Below, one piece after another: positions 10,324-59,613 of a DNA stretch of 64,000 nt. The position numbers and the translations under genes were made by a program. The notes under the pieces are model-generated. The model worked only from the letters and a program-made list of their open reading frames with translations. It was not told where the DNA came from and did no database searches. The stretch's first letter is position 1. Each line of letters begins with the position of its first letter. The stretch comes from Candidatus Tritonobacter lacicola (GTDB lineage Bacteria > Auribacterota > Tritonobacteria > Tritonobacterales > Tritonobacteraceae): the NCBI GenBank assembly GCA_030765135.1, contig JAVCDC010000125.1, positions 31,607 to 95,606 on the forward strand. The letters run 5' to 3'.

Positions 10324-10364
10324 GCCCGTACCCGCTCCTTCGATCATTCTATCTTCAATCGTCC

Positions 10365-13772: not shown

Positions 13773-13850
13773 CGAATCTCCTTGCTAACGGGAGCGGTTA
13801 ATTGGTTGATCAGGAAACAGCATGTGCAATTATATAAGGATAATTCATCA

Positions 13851-13880
13851 TAAATTCGCGAGCGTAGCGAGCGAATTTAT
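13851..13880. promoter_or_regulatory. 30-bp near-palindromic element, copy 1 (TAAATTCGCGAGCGTAGCGAGCGAATTTAT)
   Basis: Reverse-complement version of the motif found at 25198, 27031, 31163 and 57975; about 80 nt upstream of the 11937..13772 gene start. Confidence 0.6.
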
Positions 13881-20921: not shown

Positions 20922-22418
20922 TCAGACCCTCGCGAAGCCCCTCAGCCTGCACTTTATTCTGCGGTAGCCCACTATGATAACCGCGTACAGCGGATTAAAT
21001 ACCTTTCTGTTAAAAGCGAACACTGCCGGAGCCGACAGCAGCAACCTCATCAGTACCCTGGGGAAGCCGTGGTTCAGGAGCAGGAACATGAGGTTGAGGT
21101 AGCTGCTCTCCCTTATGTGGAACTGCTTGCGGTAAACGTCCACCTTCTCGTCTGCCAGGATGCCGTCGGCCCTCGCCCGGTCGTAAAGCACCGTTCCGGG
21201 AAAAAGCACAAGGGAGAACGGCTGGAGGACGTACGGCCGGGGAAGCTTAAGGGCGAAGCGGAGCGTCTCCACGACGTCACGGGTGTCCTCGTACGGGTTG
21301 TCCAGAAGGAAATCGTATATCGGCATGACGGTCTTCCGGTGCCTGTTTATCAGCACCGCCGCCTTCTCCGTGAGATCCACGGGTATGCGCCTGTTGTACA
21401 GCTGCAGCGTCCGCTCGCTCGCCGACTGGATGCCCATCTGGAGCTCCACCATGCCGGCCGCCGCCAGGTGCTCCAGCTTTCCCGCGGTTATGGTCAGCGG
21501 CGACCCCAGGCAGAAAAAAGGCAGGCCGACCTTTTTCCTGTAGAGCCCGGCGAACTCGGCGATCGCCTCCTCGCCGGCGGCGAAGAAGGAATCATCGGAG
21601 AACGTGATCCTCTTTATGAAGGGGTACCTGCGAACCACCTCCGACAGCTCCGAAACGATGTTTTCAGGGCTCCGGCGCCTGAGGTATCTCTGGCCGCCGT
21701 AGAGCTTTCTCAAGAGGTGATTGCAGCAGTACGTGCAGCTGTGGGGACACCCGCGCGTGGCCATCGTCTGGTATGGAACGGTGCGCGCGTTCAGGGCCAT
21801 CGGGCTCGACCCCAGGAACTCCTCCAGCAGCTCCCTGTCCATCCTCTCGACCCGCCCCTCCCCCGCAATCATGACGTAGTCGTCCTCCAGCTCGTAATCC
21901 GGGAAGGGAAGGTTATCGAGGTCCTGGATCAGCGGACGAAGGTTATTCCTCACTATCTCGCCGTCCCTCCTGACCCATATATTGGGGACGTCCCCGGCGG
22001 GCAGGCCTTCCCCCATCCTCCGGACCAGATCGTATAGGGCCTCCTCGCCCTCACCCACGCATATCATGTCCGCGTGCCGGAGGCACTCCCCGGGCTTTAC
22101 CGTGGGATGGATCCCTCCCCAGAGAACGGGGGCGCGTATCCTCTCCTTCAGCTTTGCCGTGAGGTCCGCCACCCTCTCGAAATACATCGTGAAGAGGGAG
22201 ATGCCCACGAGGTCCGCGTCGGCGCAGAGCACGGCGACCCTGTCTAGCACGGCCGGATCGTACCGGTAGAACCTCCCGGAAAAATCCTCCAGCTCCGCGA
22301 CGGCGTCGGGAAGAAATATCTGGCGCGTCGGCACCCCGCGCGACTTGAGGTAGGCGGCCAGAGACCTCATGCCGAACGCGGTTATGTCCGAATACGGCGC
22401 TATCAGCACAACCCTCAT
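20922..22418 (-). CDS. B12-binding domain radical SAM enzyme
   Basis: MRVVLIAPYSD...DADLVGISL B12-binding region; TRGCPHSCTYCCNH CxxxCxxC motif. ATGA overlap with the downstream gene. Confidence 0.75.
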   Translation of the reverse strand: MRVVLIAPYSDITAFGMRSLAAYLKSRGVPTRQIFLPDAVAELEDFSGRFYRYDPAVLDRVAVLCADADLVGISLFTMYFERVADLTAKLKERIRAPVLWGGIHPTVKPGECLRHADMICVGEGEEALYDLVRRMGEGLPAGDVPNIWVRRDGEIVRNNLRPLIQDLDNLPFPDYELEDDYVMIAGEGRVERMDRELLEEFLGSSPMALNARTVPYQTMATRGCPHSCTYCCNHLLRKLYGGQRYLRRRSPENIVSELSEVVRRYPFIKRITFSDDSFFAAGEEAIAEFAGLYRKKVGLPFFCLGSPLTITAGKLEHLAAAGMVELQMGIQSASERTLQLYNRRIPVDLTEKAAVLINRHRKTVMPIYDFLLDNPYEDTRDVVETLRFALKLPRPYVLQPFSLVLFPGTVLYDRARADGILADEKVDVYRKQFHIRESSYLNLMFLLLNHGFPRVLMRLLLSAPAVFAFNRKVFNPLYAVIIVGYRRIKCRLRGFARV

Positions 22419-23548
22419 TTCAGCAAAGTCCCCAGTTTCCCGGCGAGGGCGTCAGCCACCACCCCGTGGCCGTCGTAGTTCCAGTGAATCCAGCGGAGGG
22501 CCTTCCCCCTCTCGAGAAAATCGTCCCTGAAAACACCCTGTAGGCCGATGTAGTCAACGCCGAGGACGGCCGCTAGATCTCCGAGGTCCTTATCGAAAAA
22601 ATCTCCGTCGAAAGAGGGGTCGATAGACCTGTAACGCTCCTCGCTCTCCGGCTCGTAGGCCAGCGTCTCCATGCAGACCAGGAGGAAACCGCACCCCCGC
22701 TCACCGCAGAGCCTGGCCATCTCGCCTATCAGCCGCTTGTTGAGCGCGTAGTTTGCAGCGTAGGCCTCATCGGGGGAGGCGGTGCAGAGTGTCAGGAAAC
22801 CTCCCAGGCTCTCTTCCTCTTCCTCGTAGCGCTTCGCCACGTTCTCCATGAGCCTCTTCCTGCGCCTCTCCACCAGGAGTGAAGCAAGGGCGGAGTTCCG
22901 GGTGAGGGCGCTGACAAACCCCTTCAACCTGTACGCCCCCGTCTCCCTGAAGCCCGGGTCAAGGCGCAGCTCCCCCTCCTCCCCGGCCGTGTAAAAAGGC
23001 CGCAGTGTCTCAGGGGCTGTCTCCCTTGAGACGTCCTCGATGTCCGTCCTGGGCATGAAGAAGAGTACGACCATGTCCGGCGAGAAATCCAGGACGTCGT
23101 TCTCCAGGATGAGAAGCTCCTCCGTCGTCGTAGCGCCGGACCTTCCGAAGTTCATGACCTCCACGCCGAAGGGGAACTCGCCCCCGAGCCTCTCCTCCGC
23201 GAGGGAGAGAAAGGTCTTCTCCTGCTCGACCTGCATCGCCTCGACGAAGCTGTCCCCCAGCACGGCGACCCGGCGGGCATCCTCCGGCTTCTCCGGCTGC
23301 CGCTCCCGGTCCCTCCACCCGTGCCTGTTTATCCTGCCCGTTATCGGATGGTCGTTCTCCTCGTAGTACCAGTACGCGGCGCCGGGGACCATCCTCCAGC
23401 TGATGAGAGGGTCCGGCATGGTCCAGGAGAGCCTGGCGCCGAAAAGATGTGTCGCCCTCAGTATAAGTTCAATTGCGAGGAACGTAACAACCAGCGCGAT
23501 AGCCGCAGCCCCTAACTTCCTGACAAGAGCGGATTTCAGTAATCTCAC
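22415..23548 (-). CDS. SGNH/GDSL-family hydrolase, membrane-anchored
   Basis: N-terminal TM anchor; VLGDSF (block I), NFGRSG (block II), WIHWNYDGH (block V, DxxH). Confidence 0.6.
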   Translation of the reverse strand: MRLLKSALVRKLGAAAIALVVTFLAIELILRATHLFGARLSWTMPDPLISWRMVPGAAYWYYEENDHPITGRINRHGWRDRERQPEKPEDARRVAVLGDSFVEAMQVEQEKTFLSLAEERLGGEFPFGVEVMNFGRSGATTTEELLILENDVLDFSPDMVVLFFMPRTDIEDVSRETAPETLRPFYTAGEEGELRLDPGFRETGAYRLKGFVSALTRNSALASLLVERRRKRLMENVAKRYEEEEESLGGFLTLCTASPDEAYAANYALNKRLIGEMARLCGERGCGFLLVCMETLAYEPESEERYRSIDPSFDGDFFDKDLGDLAAVLGVDYIGLQGVFRDDFLERGKALRWIHWNYDGHGVVADALAGKLGTLLK

Positions 23549-23607
23549 AAAAAAACCTCGCTATATATAATCATGCAGTGACCTGAACAGCCCCTCCGGC
23601 CCGTGCA

Positions 23608-25182
23608 CTAACGTATCTTGTGAATAAAGTTCCTGATGCGGTCGAGGTCGCCCGTCAGAACGGACCTGACTCCCTTATAGACTACTATCCCGGAATCACC
23701 GAGACGGCAAAGGAGAGAATACATGGGATTGAGAAAACTACGGCCCAACAACCTCGTGAAGAACCGCCGACTCAGCACGCCGAGCAACCACCCGGGGAAA
23801 CAGCTGTATCCCGCCAGGTAGATAAGAAAATTGGGATATGAGCCGAGAGGGGTGTGGAGATGCTTGCCGTAAATCTGCCGCCTCTCGTCCGTCAGCCACC
23901 CGTCCCTCTTGCCTATCTCGTAGAGCTTCGTGCCGGGGAAGGGGACCAGCGAAGACCTCTTCAGCCAGAACGGCCGGGGCAGCCGCAGGAGAAGATCGAG
24001 GGTCTCCATCGTCTCCCCGGGAGTCTCCCACGGGTTATCGAGGATGACGTGATAACAGGGCCAGAACATGCGGGGCGTGAAACAGCTGATTATCCGCGCC
24101 GCTTTGAGAATCTGCTCGTTCGTCGAACTCCGGTTGAACATGGAGCGTGTCCTCTCGTTTCCCGTCTGGACGCCCATTTCGACAAAGACCAGGCCGGCGT
24201 CGATCATGAGCTCCATCTTCTTCTCCGTGATCGTCGCGGGGCTCACCTGTATGTAGAAGGGCAGCCCGATAGCCTCTTTATAAAGGCGGCAGAAATCCGC
24301 GATCTCCGCCTCGCTCCTGAGAGCGAAGGTGTCGTCGAAGATGTTGATCCCCTCTATCCCGGGGAACTTCGCGGTGATCTCCCCGAGCTCGGCGATGATG
24401 TTCGGCACGCTTCTCTTGCGAAGGTGCTTCTGGCGGGGAAACATCTCCTTCATGATGCTTATCGAGCAGTAGTAGCAGCTGTGGGGGCACCCCCTCACGG
24501 TGTAAGTCTTGTACGTCCTCCACATCTTCCCGTACGGGTCGTAGAGGGTGCTCTCGGGAGACGGCTCCCTGGGGAAGGAGCGGCAGAGGAGCTCGGGCGT
24601 CATGCCGACTATGCGGCCCTCGTCCATGTGATAAACGTAGTGGTCCTCCAGGTCGTAATCGTAAAACGGGAGGCTGTCGAGGTCCTCGACCAGCGGGCGG
24701 AGCGGGTTCCTCTTCACCCTCCCGTCCTCCTTGAACCAGACTCCGCGGGTATCGGTGCAGTCCCGGCCCTCGCCCATCCTGTTTAATATCTCCTCGAGGG
24801 CCTCCTCCCCGTCGCCGATGCACACCATGTCCGCGTGCTCGAGGGCCTCCTCGGGCTTGACCGTGGGGTGAATACCGCCCCATATGACGGGAGGGCCGCC
24901 CGTCCCCTTCACGGCGCGGGTGAGCTGGACGGCGCGGTCGAAGTAGTTTGTCATGAGCGAAACGCCTACCAGGTCGGCATCTCCGCAGAGGGCGGCGACC
25001 TCGTCCAGGACGCGCGGCTCGTACCTGTACTCGTACCCTGCCCTGTGCTTCATCATCGCGACGCCTCCGGGGAGAAAAATAATGTTCACACCGTGCCCCC
25101 TGCTCTTGAGGTACGCCGATATAGACCTCACTCCGAAAGCGCTGAGGTCAGGCGGCGTCGGCGCCACTAAAACAACCTTCAT
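23608..25182 (-). CDS. B12-binding domain radical SAM enzyme
   Basis: MKVVLVAPTPP...DADLVGVSL; VRGCPHSCYYCSIS CxxxCxxC; about 45% identity by eye to the 20922..22418 paralog. GAGGAG 6 nt upstream of the ATG. Confidence 0.75.
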   Translation of the reverse strand: MKVVLVAPTPPDLSAFGVRSISAYLKSRGHGVNIIFLPGGVAMMKHRAGYEYRYEPRVLDEVAALCGDADLVGVSLMTNYFDRAVQLTRAVKGTGGPPVIWGGIHPTVKPEEALEHADMVCIGDGEEALEEILNRMGEGRDCTDTRGVWFKEDGRVKRNPLRPLVEDLDSLPFYDYDLEDHYVYHMDEGRIVGMTPELLCRSFPREPSPESTLYDPYGKMWRTYKTYTVRGCPHSCYYCSISIMKEMFPRQKHLRKRSVPNIIAELGEITAKFPGIEGINIFDDTFALRSEAEIADFCRLYKEAIGLPFYIQVSPATITEKKMELMIDAGLVFVEMGVQTGNERTRSMFNRSSTNEQILKAARIISCFTPRMFWPCYHVILDNPWETPGETMETLDLLLRLPRPFWLKRSSLVPFPGTKLYEIGKRDGWLTDERRQIYGKHLHTPLGSYPNFLIYLAGYSCFPGWLLGVLSRRFFTRLLGRSFLNPMYSLLCRLGDSGIVVYKGVRSVLTGDLDRIRNFIHKIR

Positions 25183-25197
25183 ATAGTACTCCTCAAC

Positions 25198-25229
25198 AAT
25201 AAATTAGCTCGCTACGCTCGCAAATTTAT
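25198..25229. promoter_or_regulatory. 30-bp near-palindromic element, copy 2
   Basis: ATAAATTAGCTCGCTACGCTCGCAAATTTAT, 16 nt upstream of the rSAM start at 25182. Confidence 0.6.
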
Positions 25230-25440
25230 GTGGCTCCGACTGCGTCGGAGCATTGTGACAGCCAAAAGCTTTATCCTGCACACCCTACCCCGGTCCCGGT
25301 GGGACTTTCCGTCAATAACTGCCGGATCTTAGACCCTCCGGCGGGATCCCTATCGGGAAAGGGTGCGGCTACCTTTGTAAACATAACAAATTCCTATACC
25401 ATTAAATTATTGGAATTTATTCAATTGGCCGAATTAAAGC
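25198..25440. repeat. repeated intergenic element, copy A (30-bp palindrome + GCTCCGACTGCGTCGGAGC hairpin + conserved 3' block GGCTACCTTTG.AAA.ATAACAAATTCCTATAC)
   Basis: Shares three collinear blocks with 57975..58140. Confidence 0.6.
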
Positions 25441-25504
25441 ATTATCACACCCACATGAAATGGAAGAGAATCATTCCTTCTACTCCGTATAATCCGCGAT
25501 TTTT

Positions 25505-27031
25505 TTATGTTTTATTATTCTTACCCCCCCTCGCCGCGAGGTAAAGCCTGATCAGGCGCCGCCTGATATAGCTCCACCCCTTCCTGAAGATAAAGAGGGG
25601 ATCGTTTACGATGAAGAGGCGGTACTCGCGAAGCCGCCGGGTGAGGCTCCGGTGATACCTGTAAACCCAGCCCGCTATCTCGCTTGCCGCCTTCTCGAAG
25701 TCATCCCTGCTCACGTCCTTCATGAAGTGGTTTACGGGCCACGCGCCGAACCGCCTCCAGTCGGGTTTTTCCGGGACAAGCCCCAGCTCCGCGCACCTCT
25801 CCATGAGCGGGCTCCCGGGCAGCGGCTCGAAGATATTGAAGATGATCGACGGCGTCCTGAGCGAGCGCATAAGAGAGAAGGTCCGGCGGATGTCGTCGAG
25901 CGTTTCCTCCGGGAAGCCGATGATGAAGTTCGCCCCGGCCGTTATACCGTTCCTGTACATGAGCTCGTACGCCTCCCGTATCTGGCGCAGGTCGACCCTC
26001 TTCTCTATGATTTTCAGCATCCTGTCGCTTCCCGACTCGATGCCTATCGAGAGACCGGCGCAGCCCGCCCTCTTCATCAGCTTCAGGAGCGGCTCCTCGA
26101 GAATATCGGCCCTGGTCATGGTGAGCCATGAAATATTCAGCCGCTCCTCTATCATGCGCTCACACAGCTCGGTGACGTACTCCCGGTTGACGGTAAAGTT
26201 ATCGTCGAGGAAGTTGACTATCCTGGCATTGAAAGTCCGGGTGAGGTATCTGACTTCCTCGATGACCCTGCCCGGCGACCGGAACCGCACGGTCCTCCTC
26301 CAGAAGAGGGGTGACGAGCAGTAGGCGCACTTCCACGGGCACCCCCTCGACGCCATGACGCCGACGAACGGCATCCGCCTGTAGGCTCCGGGCCTCAGAA
26401 CGAGGTGCGCGGCCGGCACGGGGAGAGCGTCCAGGTCCTCGATACACTCCCTGTCCGGGTTGTGGATCGTCTTTCCTCCTTCGATAAACGAGATGCCACG
26501 AATGGACCTCAGCCCCGGCCCCTTCCCCTCCAGGGAGGCGCAAAGCTCGGCAATGGTGCTCTCCCCCTCGCCCCGGACGATAAAGTCTATCCCGCCGTAG
26601 CCCAGGACATCATCGGGAAGGAAAGTCGGGTGGGCGCCTCCCCAGGCGACGGCGGTGGACGGGTTCATCTCCTTCGCGATCCTGCTCACCTTGAGGGCGC
26701 TGCCCACCTCCCCAGTGAGAACGCTGACCCCCACGAAGTCCGGCGAGAAATCCCCGATCACGCGCCGGACCTCCCGCCACACGGGATGGTCGTCCTCCCC
26801 GAGCGACCTCAGGTAGCGGGCGTGGCTCTCTCCCCGCTCCCTGAACATCGTAAACTCGTCCGGGACTATGCCGACCCCCAGGCCGGTGCTGTTGTCACCG
26901 TGATAAATACCCACCTCGTGCCCTTCCGCTTCGAGAACGGCAGCGAGGTAACCCACCCCGAGCGAGAAGATTGGAAGCTCCTCGAAGCCCTTCAGCCTCT
27001 TATAGGGCGGCCTGATAAGCAGCGCTCTCAT
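25505..27031 (-). CDS. B12-binding domain radical SAM enzyme
   Basis: MRALLIRPPYKRL...PDFVGVSV; SRGCPWKCAYCSSP CxxxCxxC. Its start codon is flush against the 30-bp palindromic motif. Confidence 0.75.
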   Translation of the reverse strand: MRALLIRPPYKRLKGFEELPIFSLGVGYLAAVLEAEGHEVGIYHGDNSTGLGVGIVPDEFTMFRERGESHARYLRSLGEDDHPVWREVRRVIGDFSPDFVGVSVLTGEVGSALKVSRIAKEMNPSTAVAWGGAHPTFLPDDVLGYGGIDFIVRGEGESTIAELCASLEGKGPGLRSIRGISFIEGGKTIHNPDRECIEDLDALPVPAAHLVLRPGAYRRMPFVGVMASRGCPWKCAYCSSPLFWRRTVRFRSPGRVIEEVRYLTRTFNARIVNFLDDNFTVNREYVTELCERMIEERLNISWLTMTRADILEEPLLKLMKRAGCAGLSIGIESGSDRMLKIIEKRVDLRQIREAYELMYRNGITAGANFIIGFPEETLDDIRRTFSLMRSLRTPSIIFNIFEPLPGSPLMERCAELGLVPEKPDWRRFGAWPVNHFMKDVSRDDFEKAASEIAGWVYRYHRSLTRRLREYRLFIVNDPLFIFRKGWSYIRRRLIRLYLAARGGKNNKT

Positions 27032-27060
27032 AAATTAGCTCGCTGCGCTCGCAAATTTAT
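27031..27060. promoter_or_regulatory. 30-bp near-palindromic element, copy 3
   Basis: TAAATTAGCTCGCTGCGCTCGCAAATTTAT, flush with and overlapping the rSAM ATG at 27031. Confidence 0.6.
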
Positions 27061-27130
27061 TACAAAAAATTTTTGAAATTCCGAGGCAGTAAATTAATTC
27101 GCTCCGCTCATTCATCCTGCATCCCGTATC

Positions 27131-27234
27131 TTTTCACGTTCCACGTCCCACGTCCCACGTTCGTTTTTTTTCACGTTACACGTCACACGTCACACGGTTG
27201 TTATTTCACGTTACACGTTTATCATTTCACGTTT
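27131..27234. repeat. tandem heptamer array A (CACGTNN)n, about 11 copies, T-run interspersed
   Basis: Read directly: ttcacgttccacgtcccacgtcccacgttcgttttttttcacgttacacgtcacacgtcacacgg...; it abuts the stop of LtaS-like paralog 1 and lies about 100 nt upstream of the rSAM start at 27031. Confidence 0.9.
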
Positions 27235-29046
27235 TTACTGAATGTATCCCAGGCTCCTGAGCTTCTCCTCTGTCTCGTAGTCCATGACCGTGACGGCCTC
27301 ACCCGCCCTCGGCAACTCCATGATCGAGCGGATCCTCTCCCGGTACTCCTTCACCAGGTCCTCCCGCTCCTTCGATATGTCCCGCAGTTCCAGGGGGTCC
27401 CCGTCCAGGTCGTAGAGCTCCACGGCATCGCCCGGCTTCACGATAAGCTTGTAGCGGTCCGTGCGGTAGGCGACATCGACCGGCCCGTCCCCCATCCGCT
27501 CCGCGACCTGGATCAGGGCGCCCTCCCGCGCGCGTGAGGCATCGCCCTTCATAAGCGGGAGCAGGCTCTCCCCCCCGCACCAGCCGGGGACCTCGAGGCC
27601 GGCCAGCTCCATTATCGTCGGGGCGATGTCGATGGTCTCGACAGGCTGCGGGACGCGCACCGGGCCGACCAGCCCGCGGCTCCGGATGAGCAGCGGCACC
27701 CTTATATGCCCATCGTAGAGCGCCTGGCTGTGACAGAAATAGAGGTCGTGCTCGGTGAGGCTCTCGCCGTGGTCACCTACGACCACGAGTATATAGTCGC
27801 CGGACCTCTCATCAAGCGCCTTCAGGAGCCTCCCCAGCTCCGCATCCATGTAGGTTATCTCCGCGTCGTACTGGGCGATCGGGTATTCGACGTCCGTGAA
27901 ATTGCGCAGCCGGGGCGGCCAGTAGGGGGGCAGCTCGATGCCATCCATCGACCGGTTGTCCGGGTCGTCCTTCCGCCCCTCGTAGTACATGCCCGAGTAG
28001 GGAGCCGGCGGCTCATAGGGGCCGTGTGGATCATTATAGTGCACCCAGAGAAAGAAGGGGACGCGCGCGGACCGCAGCCATGACACGGCATCGTCTGTCG
28101 TCCGGGCGGCAATCCGCTGAAACCTCCCGCCGGCAGTCCGCCCCAGCCAATCGGCAGCACACACGAGCACCAGGCTGTGGAATCCCTTCAGCCGCGAGAA
28201 ATCGTCGTCGTATATTTCGAACCCCCCTGAGAACCCGAACCGCGAATCAATCGGGAAGGCGCTCACGAACGCAGCCGTCCTGTAACCGCGCTTCCCGAAC
28301 TCGTGTACTATCTTCGGGATCTCCGGAGAGTGCCGCTGCTTGTTGCCAAGGACACCGTGCTGGTGCGGGTAAAGCGAGGTAAGGATGGAGAGGTGCGACG
28401 GGTTCGTCACGGGTATCTGGCTGATCGCGTTCTCGAAGAGGACTCCCTCAGACGCTATCCCGTCCAGAGTCGGCGTCAGGATCCGCTCGTTCCCGTAACA
28501 GTGGAGGCGGTCGGCCCTGACGGTGTCGAGCGCCACCAGGACTATGTTCGGCAGCCCCTCCTGCGGCGACGGCCCGCGCGCACCGGGAATCGCCAGCCAG
28601 GCGGTGATCCCCGCGAAGACGGCGATGCCGGCATAGACGCCCCTCCTGCCCCTGAGCTGGCCGCCGAGGGACAGGCCGGCAACAGCCGAGAGGAGGGCGG
28701 AGAGGGCGACCAGGACGGACGCCCACAGCAGAAACGGAGGAGAGAGGAGGACGGCCATACGGGACAGCCTGAAGGTTATGAGGTAAGCGAAGCCGTAGAG
28801 GAGACACCACGCCATGGCTGAGGAGGAGACGGCCACCCTCCATGGCGACGCCCGCCAGAGCCTCCGCCAGAGGGGGTAAAAGAGAACGCACGCGGCCGCA
28901 CCGTACAGCGCGTACATGAAGACTGCAACCAGTATAATCCCCAGCCTCCCCGCGGGAGTGAAATACAGCTCACGGATTGACGCCGCCTCGCCGTAGCCGA
29001 CGAGCCCACCCACCATGGCGCAGAAATATACCGCTCTCTTCATCAT
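27235..29046 (-). CDS. LtaS/EptA-like membrane-anchored sulfatase-fold (alkaline-phosphatase superfamily) transferase, paralog 1
   Basis: About 5 N-terminal TM helices, then a sulfatase-domain core IVLVALDTVRADRLHCYGN...ISQIPVTNPSHLSILTS...HG; the canonical C-x-P-x-R is replaced by T-N-P-S-H, consistent with a Thr nucleophile as in LtaS/EptA/MdoB. Confidence 0.65.
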   Translation of the reverse strand: MMKRAVYFCAMVGGLVGYGEAASIRELYFTPAGRLGIILVAVFMYALYGAAACVLFYPLWRRLWRASPWRVAVSSSAMAWCLLYGFAYLITFRLSRMAVLLSPPFLLWASVLVALSALLSAVAGLSLGGQLRGRRGVYAGIAVFAGITAWLAIPGARGPSPQEGLPNIVLVALDTVRADRLHCYGNERILTPTLDGIASEGVLFENAISQIPVTNPSHLSILTSLYPHQHGVLGNKQRHSPEIPKIVHEFGKRGYRTAAFVSAFPIDSRFGFSGGFEIYDDDFSRLKGFHSLVLVCAADWLGRTAGGRFQRIAARTTDDAVSWLRSARVPFFLWVHYNDPHGPYEPPAPYSGMYYEGRKDDPDNRSMDGIELPPYWPPRLRNFTDVEYPIAQYDAEITYMDAELGRLLKALDERSGDYILVVVGDHGESLTEHDLYFCHSQALYDGHIRVPLLIRSRGLVGPVRVPQPVETIDIAPTIMELAGLEVPGWCGGESLLPLMKGDASRAREGALIQVAERMGDGPVDVAYRTDRYKLIVKPGDAVELYDLDGDPLELRDISKEREDLVKEYRERIRSIMELPRAGEAVTVMDYETEEKLRSLGYIQ

Positions 29047-29110
29047 GTTGTTTTCATGCCCGTTACCCTGATTATAGTCCTGTTTAATCCGAAGTGTATT
29101 TTTCTTTTTC

Positions 29111-29368
29111 TACGTTACACATTACACGTTCCACGTTCATTTTTTTTACGTTACACGTTTATTATTTCACGTTCCACGTTTGTTTTTTACGTTACACGTT
29201 TCACGTTACACGTCACACGTTTGTTTTTTCACGTTTCACGGTTGTTTTTTTACGTTACACGTTTCACGTTACACGTTACACGTTTATTATTTCACGTCAC
29301 ACGGTTGTTTTTTTACGTTACACGTCACACGTTTGTTTTTCCACGTTACACGTTCGTTATTTCACGTC
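29111..29368. repeat. tandem heptamer array B (CACGTNN)n, about 25 copies
   Basis: Read directly; it fills the space between the start of paralog 1 (29046) and the stop of paralog 2 (29370). Confidence 0.9.
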
Positions 29369-29369
29369 T

Positions 29370-31163
29370 TCACTGTATGTAGCCCAGGCTCTTGAGCCTC
29401 TCCTGTGTCTCGCGGTCCATCAGGGGCACCCCGCGGGCGGTCGGGGCCGTCATCACCGATGCGATCCGCTCCTTCAGCTTGAGAACCAGATCCTCCCTCT
29501 CGCCGGAGATGTCGCGCAGCTCCCCCGGGTCCTTTCGAAGGTCGAAGAGGCGCGTCTCCTTTCCCGGGCGGACGATAAGCTTATACCCGCCGTCGTAGCA
29601 GGCGACGTCAAGGATGGACTCGTCTCCCTGCCGCCGCGTCTCGCTCAGCCCCTCGCCCGGCCCGGCGTTCTCGCCTTTCATGAGGGGAACGAGGCTCCTG
29701 CCCGAGCACCAGCCGGGCGCCTCAAGCCCCGCAAGGTCCAGGAGGGTTGGAACGATATCGATGGTCTGGACAACGGCTCCCACGCGCACCGGCTCGCCGG
29801 ACTTCCCGTGGCGAATAATCATGGGGACCTTGACCTGGTCATCGTAGAGATAGTCGCCGTGGCGGAAATAATACCCGCGCTCGTCAAGGCTCTCGCCGTG
29901 GTCACCGACGACAACGAGGATGGTGTCCCCGGAGCGCGAGTCTATCTCCTCCAGGAGCCTCCCGATCTGGGCGTCCGTGTAGGTGACCTCCGCGTCGTAC
30001 TGGGCGATGGGGTAGGCGATATCGGTGAAATCGCGGATCGTGGGCGGCCAGTAAAGAGGCATCTCCACACCGTCCATGCTCCGGTTGGCAGGGTCGTCCT
30101 TCCGCCCCTCGTAGTACATTCCAGAGTAGGGAGGCGGCGGGGCGTACGGGCCGTGAGGGTCGTAATAGTGCACCCACAGGAAATAGGGCTGCCGGGCGAT
30201 CCTGCGGAGCCAGGAGACGGCGTCATCGTTCGTGCGCCCCGCGATCCGCTCGAGGCGCCCGCCGGTTATCCCGAGTATCGAATCGATCACGCGCACGAGC
30301 GTCAGGCTCTGGTATCCCTTGAGGCGGGAGAAGTCGTCGTCGTATATCTCGAAACCGTCCGAGAAGCCGAACCGCGAATCCAGCGTGAAGGAGCTGACGA
30401 ACGCCGCCGTCCTGTAACCGAGCCTGCCAAGCTCGTGGACGATCTTCGGGATATCATCGGAATGCCGGTGCCAGTTCTCAACGACACCGTGCTGGTGGGG
30501 GTAGGTAGAGGAGAGGATCGATAGATGAGACGGGTTCGTTATGGGAATCTGGCTGACAGCGTTCTCGAAGAGGACTCCCTCAGACGCCAGCCGGTCGAGA
30601 ACCGGCGTGCGGACCCTGTCGTTTCCGTAACAGTGCAGTCGGTCCGACCTGATGGTATCGATCGTCACAAGGATTATATTCGGCAGCTCCCCCGGGGGCG
30701 CGGACGGGCGGCCTACGGGAAACACCATCCAGACCGTGAGCGCCGCGAAAATAACAGCGCCCGCATAGAGGCTTCTCTTCCCCTTCAGTACCCGGCCGAA
30801 CGCTCCCCCGGCCAGGAAGGAGATGGCAACGGATGCGACGAGGACGGCCGCCCCCCACATGAGAAACCGGTGCGCCTCACGGTGCATCAATCGGGAGATA
30901 ACCAGGTAGCCGAGGCCGTAAAGGAGGCACCACGCCATGACGGAGGAGGAGACGGCCGCCCTCCATGGCGACGCCCGCCGGAGCCTCCGCCAGAGGGGGT
31001 AAATAACCAGGCACGCGACCGCGCCGTACAGCGCGTACATGAAGACGGCAACCAGTATAATCCCCAGCCTCCCCGCGGGAGTGAAATACAGCTCCCGGAT
31101 TGACGCCGCCTCGCCGTAGCCGACGAGCCCACCCACCATGGCGCAGAAATATACCGCTCTCAT
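29370..31163 (-). CDS. LtaS/EptA-like sulfatase-fold transferase, paralog 2
   Basis: Same architecture. The N-terminal ~90 aa are nearly identical, at nucleotide level as well, to paralog 1. PITNPSH motif. Confidence 0.65.
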   Translation of the reverse strand: MRAVYFCAMVGGLVGYGEAASIRELYFTPAGRLGIILVAVFMYALYGAVACLVIYPLWRRLRRASPWRAAVSSSVMAWCLLYGLGYLVISRLMHREAHRFLMWGAAVLVASVAISFLAGGAFGRVLKGKRSLYAGAVIFAALTVWMVFPVGRPSAPPGELPNIILVTIDTIRSDRLHCYGNDRVRTPVLDRLASEGVLFENAVSQIPITNPSHLSILSSTYPHQHGVVENWHRHSDDIPKIVHELGRLGYRTAAFVSSFTLDSRFGFSDGFEIYDDDFSRLKGYQSLTLVRVIDSILGITGGRLERIAGRTNDDAVSWLRRIARQPYFLWVHYYDPHGPYAPPPPYSGMYYEGRKDDPANRSMDGVEMPLYWPPTIRDFTDIAYPIAQYDAEVTYTDAQIGRLLEEIDSRSGDTILVVVGDHGESLDERGYYFRHGDYLYDDQVKVPMIIRHGKSGEPVRVGAVVQTIDIVPTLLDLAGLEAPGWCSGRSLVPLMKGENAGPGEGLSETRRQGDESILDVACYDGGYKLIVRPGKETRLFDLRKDPGELRDISGEREDLVLKLKERIASVMTAPTARGVPLMDRETQERLKSLGYIQ

Positions 31164-31192
31164 AAATTAGCTCGCTGCGCTCGCAAATTTAT
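31163..31192. promoter_or_regulatory. 30-bp near-palindromic element, copy 4
   Basis: Same sequence as copy 3, flush with the ATG of LtaS-like paralog 2. Confidence 0.6.
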
Positions 31193-31273
31193 TATAAAAA
31201 ATTTTTGAAATTCCGAGGCAGTAAATTAATTCGCTCCGCTCATTCATCTTGCATCCTGAATCCTGTATCTTTT

Positions 31274-31427
31274 CACATTACACGTTCCACGTTCGTTTTT
31301 TTACGTTTCACGTTTCACGTTACACGTCACACGTTTATTTTTTCACGTCACACGTTCCACGTTCGTTTTTTTACGTTTCACGTTTCACGTTACACGTTAC
31401 ACGTTTATTTTTTCACGTCACACGTTT
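31274..31427. repeat. tandem heptamer array C (CACGTNN)n, about 17 copies with an internal ~63-bp duplication
   Basis: Read directly; it lies between the start of paralog 2 (31163) and the stop of the YfhO gene (31428). Confidence 0.9.
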
Positions 31428-33770
31428 TTACTGTATGCAGCCCAGGCTCCTGAAACGGGGAACGGACGCCCAGACAAGGAGGAGCAGAAGTGCGGCCAGG
31501 GATACGCGAGCACCCCACCTGAACGATCCCGGCCTGTAGATGAACTCCACGGTATGGCTCCCCGGAGAAAGCTCCACCGCCCTGAAGACATAGTCCGCGC
31601 GATAAACCGGCGCCTCCTCCCCGTCTATCTCGGCCGTCCAGCCCGGGTACCAGGTGTCCGTGAGGACAAGCCAGCCTCCGCGGGGCGAATCCGCCTCTAT
31701 CGTTACCCGGTCCGGGAGGTACCGGATGACGGCGCACGTGCTGCCTGCCGCGTCGTACTCCACGACCGGCGCGGAGAGCGCTCCATCATCCAGGAGCACC
31801 TCCCGGCGGGGATCGAAGGACGGCCCGGTCATGCGGGCGAGCGTCTCCTCCGCGGCCACGGGAGTAGCCCTTCCAACGATAAACGCGCGGGATAAACACC
31901 TCTCGTTCTCGTAGACCTTCACCCTCCCTCCCTGTATCCGCCTGAAGCCGGGCACGTCAATCTCGTGAACGGTGATAACGAAGCGCACGTTCAGAAGATC
32001 GAGCAGCTTCCGGTTCTTCTCCATGCGGCGCATCGACTCCTCCGGCGGCAGCGGCGCCAGGGAAGTCCCGGTCGCGTCTATGAGCGAGGAGAGCCTCTTC
32101 GGAATAAGTGGCGACGGGTACTCTATATCGGGCACGTTGAAGAGCATCCCGTAGCTTGCCGTCAAGAGTTCCTTCTCAAACGCGACGGGGACGTGCCTGT
32201 CCAGAATGGTTATCCTCCAGAGGCCGTCGGGCGCCGGCAGCGACCCGGCCGTGACGGGTCCCCTGAGAGCAATCTCGGCAGGGGTGACCGGATTATAGCC
32301 CCGCGCAAAAGCCACGAGGTCCGCGAGCGAGATAAAAATGATGAGCACGGCCGCCAGCGTCCCCGGAAGCCTGCGGGACGAAGCGAAGACGACGGCAGCC
32401 AGTGCCAGGAGCCCGATGGGGAGCATGTTCTCCGGGCGTCCCAGCCGCGTGCTTTCCCCCAGCCCGTCGATAAACGCGAGGGCTCTCTCCAGTTTGGGCG
32501 GCTCAAGGCCGGCGCGCAGCTTCCCCTCGATCTCCCCGCTACGGCGATTGAGGACGGCATGGGACAGGGGCAAAACGGCAGCGAAGAAAACGGCCAGGGC
32601 GATCGCTATAACGGCGAGCCTCATCGCCACCCGCCTATTGCGGAGGAGGTTATCGAGTCCGTAGCCGCTCAGGATGGCCAGTGAGAAAGTCAGAACGTAT
32701 CCGAACCTGGCGGGGAAGCGGAAGAGCGAGAACGGCGGAACCGCCATGAGAAGGCGGTATAACGGATTATATTTCCCCAGCATGAGCAGAAAGGAAACGG
32801 CGGCGAGAGCGATAAACACTCCCGCCCTCTTTGGCGGCGCGGCGAAAGCCAGCAAGAGCGGAAGCACACCGACATAGAAACAGAACTCCCAGTAGTTCAC
32901 GCCGACGCCCCAGTAGCCCGAGCCCTCCATGTGGTACGAAACGGGAACGGACGCCGGAGAGTCAAAACCGAAGAAGTGCGGAAAGATAAAATTTATGGCC
33001 TGGAATGGCGGGAACGAGCCCCACCCGAGAAAGCCGCTCTCCGCTCCCTCCCTGACGGAACGGACGGTCAGCTCCGCTGTCGGCAGAAGCTGGGCCGCCG
33101 GGATGGTCAGGGAGAAGAAGACGAGTATCGCAAGTGCGGGGAAAAACCGCCTCGGGCGGACTCCGAAGCGGCACAAGGTATAAAACGCCGCCGCCATGAG
33201 AGAATAAGACGCTATCTGTGGGTGCCCCGCCGTGAACTGGACGCCGACGACCACTCCGGCAAGGGCGATAAAAATCGCCCGCCTCCGTCCCTTCTCGATC
33301 AGCAGAAGGGCAAGCGGCAGCCAGGGATAAGCGCTCATCATGTGCATGAACGTCAGGTGGCTGACGGCGAACCCGCTTATCATGTAGACGGCGGATGACA
33401 GGAAGGACGGGGGGCGCGGCAAGCCGAGCTTCCTGCAGAGAGCGTAGGTGAAGAAGCCGGCCATGAGAAAGTGCCCGATGACGAGGAGGTTGCAGGCAAC
33501 GAGGGGGTGAAAAAGAAAAAACAGGATGATATTCGGCGGGTAGAGGGGGCCTGACTGTCCGTCGGCGAGCATCGGGAAGCCGCATCCCCCGAGTGGGTTC
33601 CATAGAGGTAGCGAGAAGTCCCGGTACAGGATGCCGTTGAACGCCCGCCACGGATAGTGGTGGTGGAATATATCGTGGAAGAAGAGCACCCCGTCCATCA
33701 GAAATAGGCCGGGGAAGATGATGAAGAGAACGAGAACAAGAAGCAGCAGGGGAAGCAGTCTCCCGGTCAT
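31428..33770 (-). CDS. YfhO-family polytopic membrane protein (GT-C-like glycosyltransferase)
   Basis: 780 aa, N-terminal ~13 TM helices, a single C-terminal TM helix, and the C-terminal periplasmic signature TDTWYPGWTAEIDGEEAPVYRADYVFRAVELSPGSHTVEFIYRP characteristic of YfhO proteins. Confidence 0.6.
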   Translation of the reverse strand: MTGRLLPLLLLVLVLFIIFPGLFLMDGVLFFHDIFHHHYPWRAFNGILYRDFSLPLWNPLGGCGFPMLADGQSGPLYPPNIILFFLFHPLVACNLLVIGHFLMAGFFTYALCRKLGLPRPPSFLSSAVYMISGFAVSHLTFMHMMSAYPWLPLALLLIEKGRRRAIFIALAGVVVGVQFTAGHPQIASYSLMAAAFYTLCRFGVRPRRFFPALAILVFFSLTIPAAQLLPTAELTVRSVREGAESGFLGWGSFPPFQAINFIFPHFFGFDSPASVPVSYHMEGSGYWGVGVNYWEFCFYVGVLPLLLAFAAPPKRAGVFIALAAVSFLLMLGKYNPLYRLLMAVPPFSLFRFPARFGYVLTFSLAILSGYGLDNLLRNRRVAMRLAVIAIALAVFFAAVLPLSHAVLNRRSGEIEGKLRAGLEPPKLERALAFIDGLGESTRLGRPENMLPIGLLALAAVVFASSRRLPGTLAAVLIIFISLADLVAFARGYNPVTPAEIALRGPVTAGSLPAPDGLWRITILDRHVPVAFEKELLTASYGMLFNVPDIEYPSPLIPKRLSSLIDATGTSLAPLPPEESMRRMEKNRKLLDLLNVRFVITVHEIDVPGFRRIQGGRVKVYENERCLSRAFIVGRATPVAAEETLARMTGPSFDPRREVLLDDGALSAPVVEYDAAGSTCAVIRYLPDRVTIEADSPRGGWLVLTDTWYPGWTAEIDGEEAPVYRADYVFRAVELSPGSHTVEFIYRPGSFRWGARVSLAALLLLLVWASVPRFRSLGCIQ

Positions 33771-33774
33771 CTGC

Positions 33775-57971: not shown

Positions 57972-57974
57972 TTT

Positions 57975-58004
57975 AAATTAGCTCGCTACGCTCGCAAATT
58001 TATT
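57975..58004. promoter_or_regulatory. 30-bp near-palindromic element, copy 5
   Basis: TAAATTAGCTCGCTACGCTCGCAAATTTAT, 3 nt upstream of the GTG start of the ABC ATPase. Confidence 0.6.
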
Positions 58005-58140
58005 TGGCTCCGACTGCGTCGGAGCATTGTGGTAGCCCTCCCGAAAGCTTTCGGGGCGCACCCTAAAGCCTGCCCGCCAGGCGGGCGGCTACCTTTGAAA
58101 ATATAACAAATTCCTATACGATCAAATTAACCACGGACTT
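57975..58140. repeat. repeated intergenic element, copy B
   Basis: Collinear blocks identical or near-identical to copy A; the middle differs, with GCCTGCCCGCCAGGCGGGCGGC here versus CCCGGTCCCGGTGGGAC...CCGGCGGGATCC there. Confidence 0.6.
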
Positions 58141-58260
58141 AACACCTACCTGTCGTCAATAAGGAATTATACCGGCTAAACCTTGTTGAAAACAGGATCT
58201 AATTTTTGGGCTTCACCTATTTCAGCAAAAATTAAATAAGCCGTAGCAACAATTATATTA

Positions 58261-59613
58261 TTATACGGGGTTCCACACGATCTTCTCAAGCGCCTCCCCT
58301 ATGACCTCGCTGTATGTGGGGTGCGCGTGGATAACCCCGGCAAGGTCCGACGCCGTGAGCCGCAGCTTGACCGCCGCCGCGATCTCCGCGATGAGATCCG
58401 TCGCCCGTTCGCCTATGATCTGCGCCCCGAGCACCGTACCGCTCCCGGGGTCGCACAGCACCTTTGCGAAACCGGAGACCTCGCCCGTCGCGTGGGCGAG
58501 GCCGATGGCCCGGTAATCCGCCCTTCCGACCCTGACGGGACAACCGCGGGCCGCGGCTTCTTCTTCTCCCATGCCGACGGAAGCAACTTCGGGATGGGTG
58601 AATATGCAGCTCGGGACCGCGGAGTAGTCCATCCGGGAGTTCCCGCCCATGGCGTTGTCGGCCGCGACCCTCCCCTGCGCCGTCGCCACGTGCGCGAGCA
58701 GGAGCCTGCCGGTAACGTCCCCCACGGCGAAGACGGACGGGCCCGATGTCCTCATATCATCCCCCGCCCGGATGGATCGGCCTTCCATCTCCAGCATGCC
58801 CTCCGGGAAAGCCGGCAATACCGGAACGCGGCCGACGGCAACGAGAGTCGTGTCCACCCGGAGGCTTCGCTCGCCTTTCGGCGTCCGCACGACCGCCCCT
58901 CCCCCGGCATCAACGGAGACGACGCTCGACCCGGCAAAGACGTTAACGCCGGACCTTCTCAGGTGCTTCCTCAGCTCCGCCCCGACGTCCCCGTCAACGG
59001 AAGGGAGGATCTCTTCCATCGCCTCGACGATCGTCACTCGGGAGCCGAGGCTGTTGTATATCGTGGCGAACTCGCACCCGATAGCCCCGCCGCCGACTAT
59101 CAGCAGGGCCCCGGGGACATTCTCCAGGCGCAGGGCCTCCCTGCTTGTCCAGCAACTTCCCCCCCTTACTACGCCGCCGGGAATGGCGGCGGGCATCGAA
59201 CCCGTGGCCAGGATTATGCTGCCGGCCGTGATGCGTGTATCGCCGTCGACGCTTATGACCCCCTCCCCTTCAATACCGCCCTCTCCCCTGACGCGTTCCA
59301 CGCCGCTCTCGTAGAGGAGCCTCTCCATCGACTTCGCCAGCCTCTCAACAACCGCCCTGCTCCCATCGGCGATCCTTTGGAGGTCCACGCAGCCGACCTC
59401 GAGCTCGACCCCCCTCTTTCCGCTCTTGGCCGCCTCCTCGATCAGACCGCAGGTGCTGAGAACGTGCTTGGTCGGGATGCATCCCCGGTGGAGGCAGACG
59501 CCGCCCACACGCTCCCTCTCTATCAGGACAACACTGCCGCCGAGCGCGGCGACGCGGAGGGCGGCCGAGTAGCCGCCGGGGCCCCCGCCTATAATGCCGA
59601 CGTCGTAATCCAT
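58261..59613 (-). CDS. lpdA: dihydrolipoyl dehydrogenase
   Basis: MDYDVGIIGGGPGGYSAA FAD-binding N-terminus, redox disulfide GGVCLHRGCIPTK, C-terminal dimerisation HAHPTYSEV. Confidence 0.85.
   Translation of the reverse strand: MDYDVGIIGGGPGGYSAALRVAALGGSVVLIERERVGGVCLHRGCIPTKHVLSTCGLIEEAAKSGKRGVELEVGCVDLQRIADGSRAVVERLAKSMERLLYESGVERVRGEGGIEGEGVISVDGDTRITAGSIILATGSMPAAIPGGVVRGGSCWTSREALRLENVPGALLIVGGGAIGCEFATIYNSLGSRVTIVEAMEEILPSVDGDVGAELRKHLRRSGVNVFAGSSVVSVDAGGGAVVRTPKGERSLRVDTTLVAVGRVPVLPAFPEGMLEMEGRSIRAGDDMRTSGPSVFAVGDVTGRLLLAHVATAQGRVAADNAMGGNSRMDYSAVPSCIFTHPEVASVGMGEEEAAARGCPVRVGRADYRAIGLAHATGEVSGFAKVLCDPGSGTVLGAQIIGERATDLIAEIAAAVKLRLTASDLAGVIHAHPTYSEVIGEALEKIVWNPV

Follow-up and report, generated by a model that had tools for sequence, protein, structure and literature searches.

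A composite intergenic repeat of Candidatus Tritonobacter lacicola and its terminal hairpin, a strand-specific module at translation starts

Two intergenic regions with a common architecture

The stretch of DNA analyzed here (hereafter the window) comprises 64,000 nucleotides of a contig of Candidatus Tritonobacter lacicola (GenBank assembly GCA_030765135.1, contig JAVCDC010000125.1, positions 31,607 to 95,606), and almost all of its genes lie on the minus strand. Two of its intergenic regions carry a common, hairpin-rich element. The first lies immediately upstream of a minus-strand gene for a B12-binding radical-SAM (rSAM) protein (23608-25182), and the second immediately upstream of the minus-strand ATPase gene of an ABC-2 exporter (57231-57971), 3′ of an lpd-like gene. 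As both regions directly precede minus-strand genes, the minus strand is the relevant reading strand. In this direction each copy (termed the rSAM copy and the ABC copy; Table 1) consists of an AT-rich block A, a GC-rich middle, GGCTryCACAAT, a perfect hairpin H1 (GCTCCGAC-GCA-GTCGGAGC), CAmAT, a 27-mer (AAATTTGCGAGCGTAGCGAGCTAATTT) that forms the core of a second hairpin, H2, and finally the gene. Each of the two regions is a copy of a composite repeat that is specific to the species; its terminal module, H2, is a lineage-wide, strand-specific hairpin at translation starts.

An earlier inspection of the letters alone (the sequence-only reading) had described three collinear blocks common to both regions, and direct reading together with pairwise alignment on the minus strand confirms them between 25198-25409 and 57974-58129. 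They are a 29-nt imperfect palindrome (TAAATTAGCTCGCTACGCTCGCAAATTTA, 25200-25228 and 57974-58002), the perfect hairpin, which reads GCTCCGAC-TGC-GTCGGAGC on the plus strand and is followed by CATTGTG in both regions as described, and the distal block GGCTACCTTTG.AAA.ATAACAAATTCCTATAC.AT.AAATTA, which is block A. Dinucleotide shuffling leads one to expect 0.06 matches for the 19-nt hairpin, 0.05 for the 17-nt core of the distal block and 0.00 for the palindrome, well short of what is seen. Other parts of the earlier description need amendment. The similarity does not extend to 25440 and stops near 25409 (58129 in the second copy). The palindrome, taken to be a 30-bp one, is indeed present in both regions but is imperfect and asymmetric (GCGAGC-GYA-GCGAGC on the sense strand); nor is it confined to them, for the window holds five copies, the other three at 27032-27058 (−), 31164-31190 (−) and 13852-13878 (+). 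The GC-rich middles do differ, as had been stated, but additional common pieces, AAAGCTTT and GCRCACCCTA, lie inside them.

Distribution and structure of H2

When 185,579 species, each represented by a single genome, were scanned for the exact pattern, the 27-mer of H2 turned up in 53 stretches, all of which come from three metagenome-assembled genomes (MAGs), namely the 'PVC group bacterium' JAZDIV01, the uncultured bacterium CAWGIE01 and, with a variant, JAATFY01; the same kind of scan gave 0 matches in viral contigs. The exact rSAM and ABC proteins of the window were recovered on lake metagenome contigs. In what follows, L005-L057 designate loci of the related MAGs and L058-L063 metagenome loci, with L062 identical to L059. 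The best matches of the window proteins among the MAG loci are 25-54% identical, yet the 27-mer is identical. Searches of the literature by exact sequence and by topic returned nothing relevant on H2 or the element, and a start-abutting, sequence-invariant hairpin of this kind is, to our knowledge and by the searches run, undescribed.

A covariance model for H2, built from 70 distinct copies, finds exactly the five window copies and scores 52-59 bits on the sense strand versus 16-23 bits on the antisense strand. The conserved unit, as compiled from 74 copies, spans 31 nt, with A at position -2, T at -1, the 27-mer, A28 and T29, that is, AT-AAATTTGCGAGCGYAGCGAGCTAATTT-AT in its core form, and it is bounded by T-A on both sides (TA/AATT...AATT/TA). 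Its fold comprises seven A-U pairs, the position-6/22 pair, G-C, C-G, a tandem G.A/A.G, G-C, C-G and a GNA triloop, in which N is C, U or A. Position 6/22 is mostly U.U and becomes A-U, C-G or G-C in other copies; pair 11/17 is G-C in 64 distinct copies, C-G in five and A-U in one, and is broken in none; and in one copy the G.A/A.G is replaced by Watson-Crick pairs. The resulting covariation score of 0.047, versus 0.019 for shuffled alignments, is reached by 0/500 shuffles and exceeds that of all slid registers. As RNA, H2 folds at −13.6 kcal/mol (z = −4.1) and its antisense strand at −10.5; as DNA, H2 folds at −8.9 kcal/mol. The asymmetry of the hairpin, with GCGAGC direct in both halves and a GNA loop, is kept in 73/74 copies, which argues for a folded single strand or polar recognition rather than a symmetric dimer on duplex DNA. 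The A at position 28 is kept in 73/74 copies.

H2 at translation starts

The placement of H2 was scored for 79 copies; a start was called if H2 is followed, at a distance of 0-5 nt, by a start codon whose open reading frame (ORF) is 50 codons long or longer. Of the 79 copies, 48 (61%) have such a start, and at least one of these starts (L061) is probably spurious. On the antisense side only 5/79 (6%) have one, and the rate for random positions is 7.2% (binomial p about 1e-34). ATG is the start codon in 45/48, versus about 52% in a crude background of starts led by a Shine-Dalgarno sequence (SD). In a second class of 9-13 copies, to which the rSAM copy belongs, an SD starts 3-12 nt after H2 and the start codon is 8-22 nt away. 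In the 0-5-nt class, the encoded N-termini fit expectation for AcpS, PheT, YchF, SecE and others, and these starts are therefore real and leave no room for an SD.

What kinds of genes follow H2? The 48 downstream proteins represent 80 Pfam families. Glycosyltransferases are enriched (9/48), and the set also contains SecE, a Prs-like phosphoribosyl pyrophosphate (PRPP) synthetase, a GatA-type amidase, type II secretion system (T2SS) components E and F, ABC permeases, and AcpS-, PheT- and YchF-like products. Since these genes are functionally unrelated, H2 is a general gene-start signal and not the operator of a pathway or regulon. GspF-like and GT9 genes that appear to be orthologous between two MAGs have retained H2 upstream in both.

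Reversed copies after stop codons occur in the window (13852-13878) and in L061, L044 and L036. The window copy runs opposite to its minus-strand neighbors, and the stop codon of ORF 13923-17303 precedes it by about 45 nt. The class of H2 copies at convergent gene ends is inflated by spurious antisense ORFs, and about eight cases look real. Several convergent ORFs (L036, L010) stop at a TAA or TAG within the reversed H2.

Two simple translational mechanisms were considered and rejected. Sequestration of the AUG by a longer H2 stem fails, as the flanks beyond -3/+30 do not covary and the apparent pairing came from a chimeric test sequence. Translational coupling through an upstream ORF across the 27-mer fails too, with no conserved upstream start and an ORF entering the element only occasionally.

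Transcription through H2

H2 is found inside conserved operons in at least three contexts and must therefore be transcribed. In L047 (minus strand, 27-mer at reverse-complement offset 955), the ORF of an extracytoplasmic function (ECF) sigma factor (Sigma70_r2/r4), the last residues of which are KFASAAS, ends at a TAA inside H2; an SD comes next and then, 17 nt from H2, the start of a zf-HC2 anti-sigma gene. In L024, the H2 variant is a compensated one. A 601-codon ORF, presumably thrS from nothing more than its place ahead of infC, stops 20 nt before this variant, and beyond the variant come AAGGAGG and an IF3-like gene (infC) that starts with ATT. In L053, the order tRNA-Trp, 28-nt hairpin, 8 nt, H2 and secE ATG leaves no room for a promoter. 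The palindrome had earlier been taken for an operator; its presence inside operons, its strand-specific asymmetry, its tight coupling to start codons and its overlap with the ends of coding sequences speak against that role.

Promoters and terminators within H1 and H2 were likewise considered and set aside. A sigma-70 promoter for the downstream gene would have its TAATTT 0-5 nt from the ATG, which is too close, and TTGCGA-16-TATAAT would start transcription inside the coding sequence, downstream of the SD; a promoter scan found no sigma-70 site in the sense-strand H1/H2 of the window elements. A sigma-54 pattern, GG-N10-GC, closely precedes H1 in the window copies but is not retained by other subfamilies, and sigma-28 and Bacteroidetes TAnnTTTG/-33 TTTG (-7) motifs have the wrong spacing, as judged by eye. 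A terminator scan of either element returned no intrinsic terminator: there is no U tract, H1 is followed by CACAUAAAUUU, and the core of H2 has two G.A mismatches.

The long element

A metagenome scan that used H1 and the start of H2 recovered five further distinct full-length loci on other contigs (L058, L060, L061, L062 and L063), for a total of seven copies. Together with the dozens of H2 copies in the related MAGs, they establish a genuine multi-copy element, in line with the sequence-only reading. All full-length copies have the same order of block A, the stems P1-P2-P3 of the GC-rich middle, H1 and H2, and block A, P3 and H1 recur only in such copies. RNAalifold on the seven copies predicts P1 (7 bp), P2, P3 (CCCGAA-AGCW-UUCGGG), H1 and H2. 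In the rSAM copy, the GC-rich domain is enlarged by an insertion of about 75 nt, and its P3 has decayed. The L062 copy has an insertion of about 150 nt that contains another dispersed motif (CTCCTCGCAATGAC), of which there are 13 copies in the loci examined, one of them nested in the L062 P2 region (4947-4960). The 11-nt core of this motif, CTCGCAATGAC, occurs once in the window at 42795-42805 (−), and the motif is thus common to the window organism and the MAGs.

Five of the seven copies lie sense-upstream of genes, which encode the rSAM protein, the ABC ATPase, a Memo-like protein, a QueE-like radical-SAM enzyme and a TPR protein. Of the identities proposed earlier, a structured 5′ leader accords with this placement and with the wealth of hairpins; it gains no support from the middle domain, which is nearly free of covariation, or from the Rfam scan, in which none of the seven copies matched an Rfam 15 family at gathering or permissive thresholds (E up to 5-10). 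A ligand-sensing fold or a conserved small RNA (sRNA) fold, the latter also proposed, is unlikely because the middle accepts insertions, has lost P3 to decay in one copy and shows almost no covariation. The MITE proposal (miniature inverted-repeat transposable element) is not well supported either. The flanks of the seven aligned copies share no direct repeat outside the element that could be a target-site duplication (TSD). The ends of the rSAM copy (25197-25206 and 25403-25412) form an AT-rich inverted repeat of 10 nt with 90% complementarity; no such repeat exists in the ABC copy, and the other long copies have only a TAATT-like flank, in 4/6. Empty sites were absent from 31 contigs with the exact rSAM (20) or ABC (11) protein, all with the same spacing and all from near-identical strains only. 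A hammerhead-like core was rejected as well: CUGANGC and CGAAA are present in some copies only, A9 is missing, and Rfam gave no match.

Block A, the E-box and nearby promoters

Block A looks like a diverged copy of a motif that we call the E-box (CTGYTTCGGAATTT), which has 33 matches within 2 mismatches in the sequence examined, 31 in MAG loci (L005-L056) and two in the window. The latter, at 27076-27090 and 31208-31222 (−), precede stand-alone H2 copies, and both are themselves preceded by a degenerate H2-like hairpin (GAGC-GGA-GCGA with AT arms at 27076-27090, and the same layout at 31208-31222). The E-box often stands 0-5 nt after a stop codon or directly after an H2-like hairpin and is followed by runs of short GC hairpins (e.g., CAGCC-NGA-GGCTG, GCGCC-TCT-GGCGC). 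In L017, L039 and L052 it makes up the outer arms of a palindrome of about 55 nt.

On its antisense strand, block A contains a sigma-70-like site, TTGAAA, 16 nt, TAC(C/G/T)AT. Both hexamers are found in 6/6 copies containing block A, the conserved region ends exactly at the second hexamer, and the final T of that hexamer is kept in 5/6 copies (L061 reads TACCAC). In L062 (5104-5140, +), the site TTGAAA-16-TACCAT has its second hexamer 6 nt before the ATG of a real gene of the ABC_ATPase family (PF09818), and the mRNA of this gene is predicted to be leaderless. A sense-strand site, TTGATA/C-16-TATTTT, would start transcription at the foot of P1. Further upstream, at the end of lpd and about 110 nt from block A of the ABC copy, a near-consensus sigma-70-like promoter (Table 1) is a candidate start for a leader of about 280 nt that would hold the whole element.

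Hairpins around genes and tRNAs in the related MAGs

About 40% of H2 copies have a GC hairpin 5-10 nt upstream, the sequence of which varies by subfamily while the stem is kept (e.g., GACCCCCGAC.../...GTCGGGGGTC, GTCCTTCAC.../...GTGAAGGAC and, in the window, GCTCCGAC), and GNA triloops are found in 11/31 of these upstream hairpins. The upstream modules diverge between genomes, and copies are near-identical within a genome. One subfamily has, ahead of the hairpin, a conserved TTGCCT and a conserved TTTAAC/TTAACC that are separated by a variable spacer of 17 nt; the hairpin would begin about where a transcript would start, and its spacing from TTGCCY-like hexamers appears compatible with this. 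In CAWGIE01 and JAZDIV01, H2 follows an element of about 150 nt with multiple hairpins (L005, L008, L011, L023, L026, L027, L030, L040, L042, L044, L054 and L056). Inside this element, a segment of about 110 nt that has GGACTTGTAGGATC/GATCCTACAAGTCC at its flanks is found in both orientations (L005 and L042 versus the rest) and could be an invertible or independently inserted module.

The tRNA genes of the MAGs (Table 1) are tightly bracketed by hairpins with AT arms and GC cores. On the 5′ side these have C(GNA)G loops and stop 0-3 nt short of the mature end, and on the 3′ side they have C(TNC)G loops and begin right behind the tRNA; ordinary TTGAAA/TATAAA-type promoters lie upstream of the hairpins. 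Among all C-NNN-G triloop hairpins, the rule that GNA loops stand 5′ of a gene and TNC loops 3′ fits 45 cases and fails in 16, and reversed H2 copies after stop codons agree with it. It is tempting to speak of a hairpin code, in which such AT-armed, GC-cored hairpins would mark the 5′ boundary of an mRNA or tRNA if they carry C(GNA)G loops on the sense strand, and the 3′ boundary if the loops are C(UNC)G. H2 would be the most standardized 5′ mark, read, as RNA or extruded single-stranded DNA (ssDNA), by a lineage-specific factor (an endonuclease, or a protein associated with the ribosome or with RNA polymerase) that makes leaderless, AUG-dependent messages or recruits ribosomes to them, in place of the SD for dozens of genes. 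We regard this extended idea as improbable.

As a separate observation, AT-rich palindromes of the form CTTATTTTTCC-NNN-GGAAAAATAAG stand after genes in loci L006-L057 (e.g., L039 6404-6428, L048 7146-7170). They are usually followed by AATGTGCAAGCATTGA and have no U tract, hence they are not canonical intrinsic terminators.

Coordinates and other features of the window

Table 1. Features of the element and related motifs. Positions refer to the window, except for the tRNA genes in the last row, which are numbered within their MAG loci.
Feature	Position	Strand	Description
H2, rSAM copy	25199..25229	−	27-mer AAATTTGCGAGCGTAGCGAGCTAATTT at 25201-25227 plus AT flanks; imperfect hairpin
Start after H2, rSAM copy	25182	−	ATTGTTGAGGAGTACTAT-ATG, SD-led
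H1, rSAM copy	25233..25251	−	Perfect 8-bp hairpin GCUCCGAC-GCA-GUCGGAGC, C(GNA)G triloop, 5 nt upstream of H2
GC-rich domain, rSAM copy	25257..25373	−	Closed by P1: GGUAGCC 25367-25373 with GGCUGUC 25257-25263, two G-U pairs
Block A, rSAM copy	25367..25409		AT-rich, conserved, apparently related to E-box CTGYTTCGGAATTT
Sigma-70-like site in block A, rSAM copy	25375-25380, 25397-25402	+	TTGTAA, 16 nt, TACCAT
H2, ABC copy	57973..58003	−	27-mer 57975-58001; GTG start 3 nt downstream at 57971
H1, ABC copy	58007..58025	−	Identical to H1 of the rSAM copy
GC-rich three-way domain, ABC copy	58031..58093	−	P1 arms 58087-58093 and 58031-58037
P2, ABC copy	58072-58086	−	GCCCGCC-UG-GCGGGC
P3, ABC copy	58040-58055	−	CCCGAA-AGCU-UUCGGG
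Block A, ABC copy	58087..58129		Plus-strand reading TTGAAA (58095-58100), 16 nt, TACGAT (58117-58122), faces away from the ABC gene
Stand-alone H2	27030..27060	−	27-mer 27032-27058; ATG of B12-rSAM gene 25505-27031 at distance 0
Stand-alone H2	31162..31192	−	27-mer 31164-31190; ATG of sulfatase-family gene 29370-31163 at distance 0
H2 with fully paired arms	13850..13880	+	AAATTCGCG...CGCGAATTT; 27-mer 13852-13878
E-box ACTGCCTCGGAATTT	27076..27090	−	17 nt upstream of the 27-mer of H2 27030-27060
Near-consensus sigma-70-like promoter	58260..58289	−	TTGAGA-18-TATAAT
Bracketed tRNA genes of related MAGs	L007 3364-3445, L024 5441-5515, L048 3066-3138, L050 6008-6091, L053 1448-1524		

Several other features of the window were recorded along the way. 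A c-di-GMP-I (cyclic di-GMP) riboswitch (Rfam RF01051, 57.8 bits) lies at 17410-17498 (−); the ORF downstream of it (13923-17303, 1126 aa) contains repeats of about 198 nt at 13933-14814. Tandem 7-nt arrays are found at 27121-27233, 29097-29390, 31253-31440 and 46536-46653, with units CACGTTA/CACGTTT/CACGTCA on the plus strand and AACGTGT/GACGTGT on the minus strand that contain the E-box-like CACGTG; these four arrays are intergenic and follow paralogues of the sulfatase family, with the H2 copies at 27032 and 31164 downstream of two of them. More 7-nt arrays are at 10348-10423 and 51507-51554. At 49665-49703 (−), between gene 49744-50748 and gene 48185-49630, stands a perfect 18-bp hairpin with a C(GAA)G triloop; the ATG of the second gene is 35 nt further downstream. 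Three B12-binding radical-SAM genes and a GDSL-like gene occupy 20922-27031, and at least four paralogous sulfatase-family (PF00884) genes the adjoining 27235-37563; the whole is probably an envelope or lipid modification locus.

How may the cassette act?

The explanation that we favor, with a confidence that goes no further than an even chance, is that the cassette is a duplicating leader, possibly with its own promoter, and that H1 and H2 are transcribed and act in mRNA just 5′ of the initiation region. H2, with H1, would be the last leader element, directly 5′ of the translation initiation region, where it would set the stability of the 5′ segment and enable or regulate SD-independent, AUG-dependent initiation, probably via a lineage-specific binding factor or nuclease. 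The whole cassette would spread within the genome by duplication or recombination rather than by classical transposition, and the nested repeat insertion in L062, the two copies in non-leader orientation and the promoter-like block A site ahead of a real gene in L062 fit such behavior. The existence of the repeat family, the covariation of the H2 stem, its coupling to start codons and its transcription within operons are direct observations; that H2 acts as RNA rather than as ssDNA, that the cassette has a promoter and what the hairpin does at the molecular level, we infer from the DNA sequence.

A number of observations weigh against this explanation. Promoter-like hexamers on the sense strand are intact in only 3/6 copies, and those on the antisense strand in 5/6. 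A stable hairpin touching an SD-less AUG offers no obvious help to initiation. About 10% of H2 copies are reversed at gene 3′ ends, which a pure leader function leaves unexplained, and the same holds for two of the seven long copies: the reversed L061 element has its H2 6 nt behind the stop codon of a rubrerythrin gene, and the L062 element, also reversed, lies between two plus-strand genes. Covariation, present in the H2 stem, amounts to only two compensatory pairs in the long element among seven near-identical copies. As for the molecule that folds, a strand test on H1 counted 6 G-T versus 16 A-C, with stems that are almost all Watson-Crick; this G-U test is uninformative and does not separate folding at the RNA level from folding at the ssDNA level. 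Moreover, C(GNA)G triloops and Y-GA-R tandem mismatches are classic features of stable DNA minihairpins.

Could the element instead be selfish? H1 and H2 might be ssDNA hairpins moved by an IS200/IS605-like transposase or, like repetitive extragenic palindromic (REP) sequences and REPINs, by a REP-associated tyrosine transposase (RAYT); alternatively, the unit might be MITE-like or a minimal TA-flanked palindrome. Adjacency to start codons would then reflect a target preference or tolerated sites, not function. The many intergenic copies in a narrow taxonomic range (three of 185,579 species genomes), their near-identity within a genome beside upstream modules that diverge between genomes, the nested insertions, the occurrence in both orientations, the overlap with ends of coding sequences, the T-A on both H2 flanks, and the restriction of C(GNA)G loops and tandem G.A to a single strand, known from stable DNA minihairpins, are all in keeping with this idea. 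We nevertheless consider it unlikely, given that the 27-mer is identical across organisms with 25-54% protein identity and is kept before the GspF-like and GT9 genes of two MAGs, that its orientation and distance are coupled to starts to an extreme degree (61% sense versus 6% antisense), that the long element has neither a TSD nor convincing terminal inverted repeats (TIRs), and that the 31 contigs carrying the two loci, from near-identical strains, include no empty site.

Alternatively, the 27-mer may act in duplex DNA, as an operator or promoter of a global DNA-binding protein or of an alternative sigma factor or RNA polymerase, with the transcription start site (TSS) at its 3′ edge and leaderless or minimal-leader mRNAs as the product. 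A TSS at the 3′ edge of H2 would give just what is observed, that is, leaders of 0-5 nt or just an SD and starts that are nearly always ATG. Sequence invariance is typical of specific protein-DNA contact; the layout of an AT-rich arm, a GC core and an AT-rich TAATTT, with the almost invariant A at position 28, would suit a site of this kind, and the symmetric changes at pair 11/17 are also expected from a dimer on a palindrome. But no sigma-70 geometry fits, and sigma-54, sigma-28 and Bacteroidetes -7 motifs misfit by eye; the analogous hairpins of the MAG tRNA genes have ordinary promoters before them; the half-sites lack symmetry, with GCGAGC direct in both, and the orientation is tied to the downstream gene; and the element occurs inside a sigma/anti-sigma pair, where it overlaps the sigma coding sequence. 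We therefore hold a site of action in duplex DNA to be decidedly unlikely.

Processing of RNA offers another route to the same short leaders. If an endoribonuclease cut at the 3′ base of H2, downstream cistrons would become leaderless or nearly so, and the upstream RNA would keep a protective 3′ hairpin. An AUG 0-5 nt after H2 and starts that are almost only AUG would follow, H2 is found both after promoters and between operon cistrons, the MAG tRNA genes are bracketed by similar hairpins ending 0-3 nt from mature ends, and the A/U-rich 3′ arm is like RNase E-type sites. This proposal, which is purely inferential, strikes us as quite improbable: the SD-containing class needs no processing, and the reversed H2 copies at gene 3′ ends need a separate explanation.

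Finally, it is very improbable that P1-P2-P3 is a riboswitch-like aptamer for a ligand or protein, or the body of a conserved sRNA, for although 6/7 copies are predicted to form the three-way junction, in which P3 and the junction sequence are conserved, folding gives z-scores of -2.6 and -3.6, and several downstream genes encode radical-SAM or related enzymes, no Rfam family matches even at E up to 10, P2 takes the 75- and ~150-nt insertions, P3 has decayed in the rSAM copy, three copies have P1 mismatches that are not compensated, only two pairs covary, other downstream genes are unrelated (ABC exporter, TPR, Memo), and two copies face no gene.

Relation to known systems

Among known systems, the cassette appears most like REP mosaics, known as bacterial interspersed mosaic elements (BIMEs), and promoter-bearing MITEs that are co-transcribed as leaders. 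As with the REP/BIME sequences of enterobacteria and pseudomonads (REPINs with RAYT), we are dealing with 20-40-nt imperfect palindromes in many extragenic copies, tens to hundreds per genome, which sit at gene edges, form mosaics with other motifs and are transcribed in operons; REPs affect the stability of mRNA segments. However, REPs lie mostly after stops or between convergent genes and have no fixed relation to starts, whereas H2 precedes a start by 0-5 nt in 61% of cases and in one orientation. Unlike REPs, H2 is conserved in sequence across organisms with 25-54% protein identity, and unlike in REPIN/RAYT systems, no GTAG-type head or RAYT gene turned up in about 0.5 Mb around the matches, in which no systematic protein screen was made. 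The Correia elements of Neisseria, which are MITEs, offer a second likeness: they are intergenic, about 100-250 bp long, carry outward promoter-like hexamers at one end and are often co-transcribed as 5′ leaders, the hairpins of which can be processed. They differ in having 26-bp TIRs and a TA duplication, where our element has no TSD and at most a 10-nt AT-rich repeat in one copy, and the element, unlike Correia, is polar, with block A at one end and H2 at the other.

Two further comparisons concern the hairpins themselves. The stabilizing stem-loops of ompA-type 5′ untranslated regions are GC-rich hairpins near the transcript 5′ end and directly before the initiation region, an arrangement that would recur here with the predicted end; such stabilizers are gene-specific and are followed by an SD, whereas H2 is one sequence over dozens of unrelated genes, usually with no room for an SD. 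The d(GCGNAGC) GNA minihairpins and the hairpin promoters of the phage N4 virion RNA polymerase combine a C(GNA)G triloop, a short GC stem and AT-rich flanks that favor extrusion. H1 and H2 both carry such loops, on the sense strand. The N4 hairpin, however, forms on the template strand upstream of the start and serves a phage polymerase, whereas here the stable form is on the non-template strand and the genes are ordinary chromosomal ones.

Significance

Dispersed palindromic repeats are usually viewed as passengers after genes. H2 is instead fixed in orientation at the starts of unrelated genes, essential ones included. If it acts on mRNA, it would represent a standardized, portable module for translation starts or 5′ ends, a natural counterpart of the 'insulator' parts of synthetic biology, and would provide a handle on SD-less initiation or 5′-end definition in a lineage without cultured members. 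A mobile ssDNA hairpin, should H2 prove to be one, would itself be unusual in targeting gene starts specifically. Under either reading, H2 can be used as a start-codon marker when annotating these MAGs.

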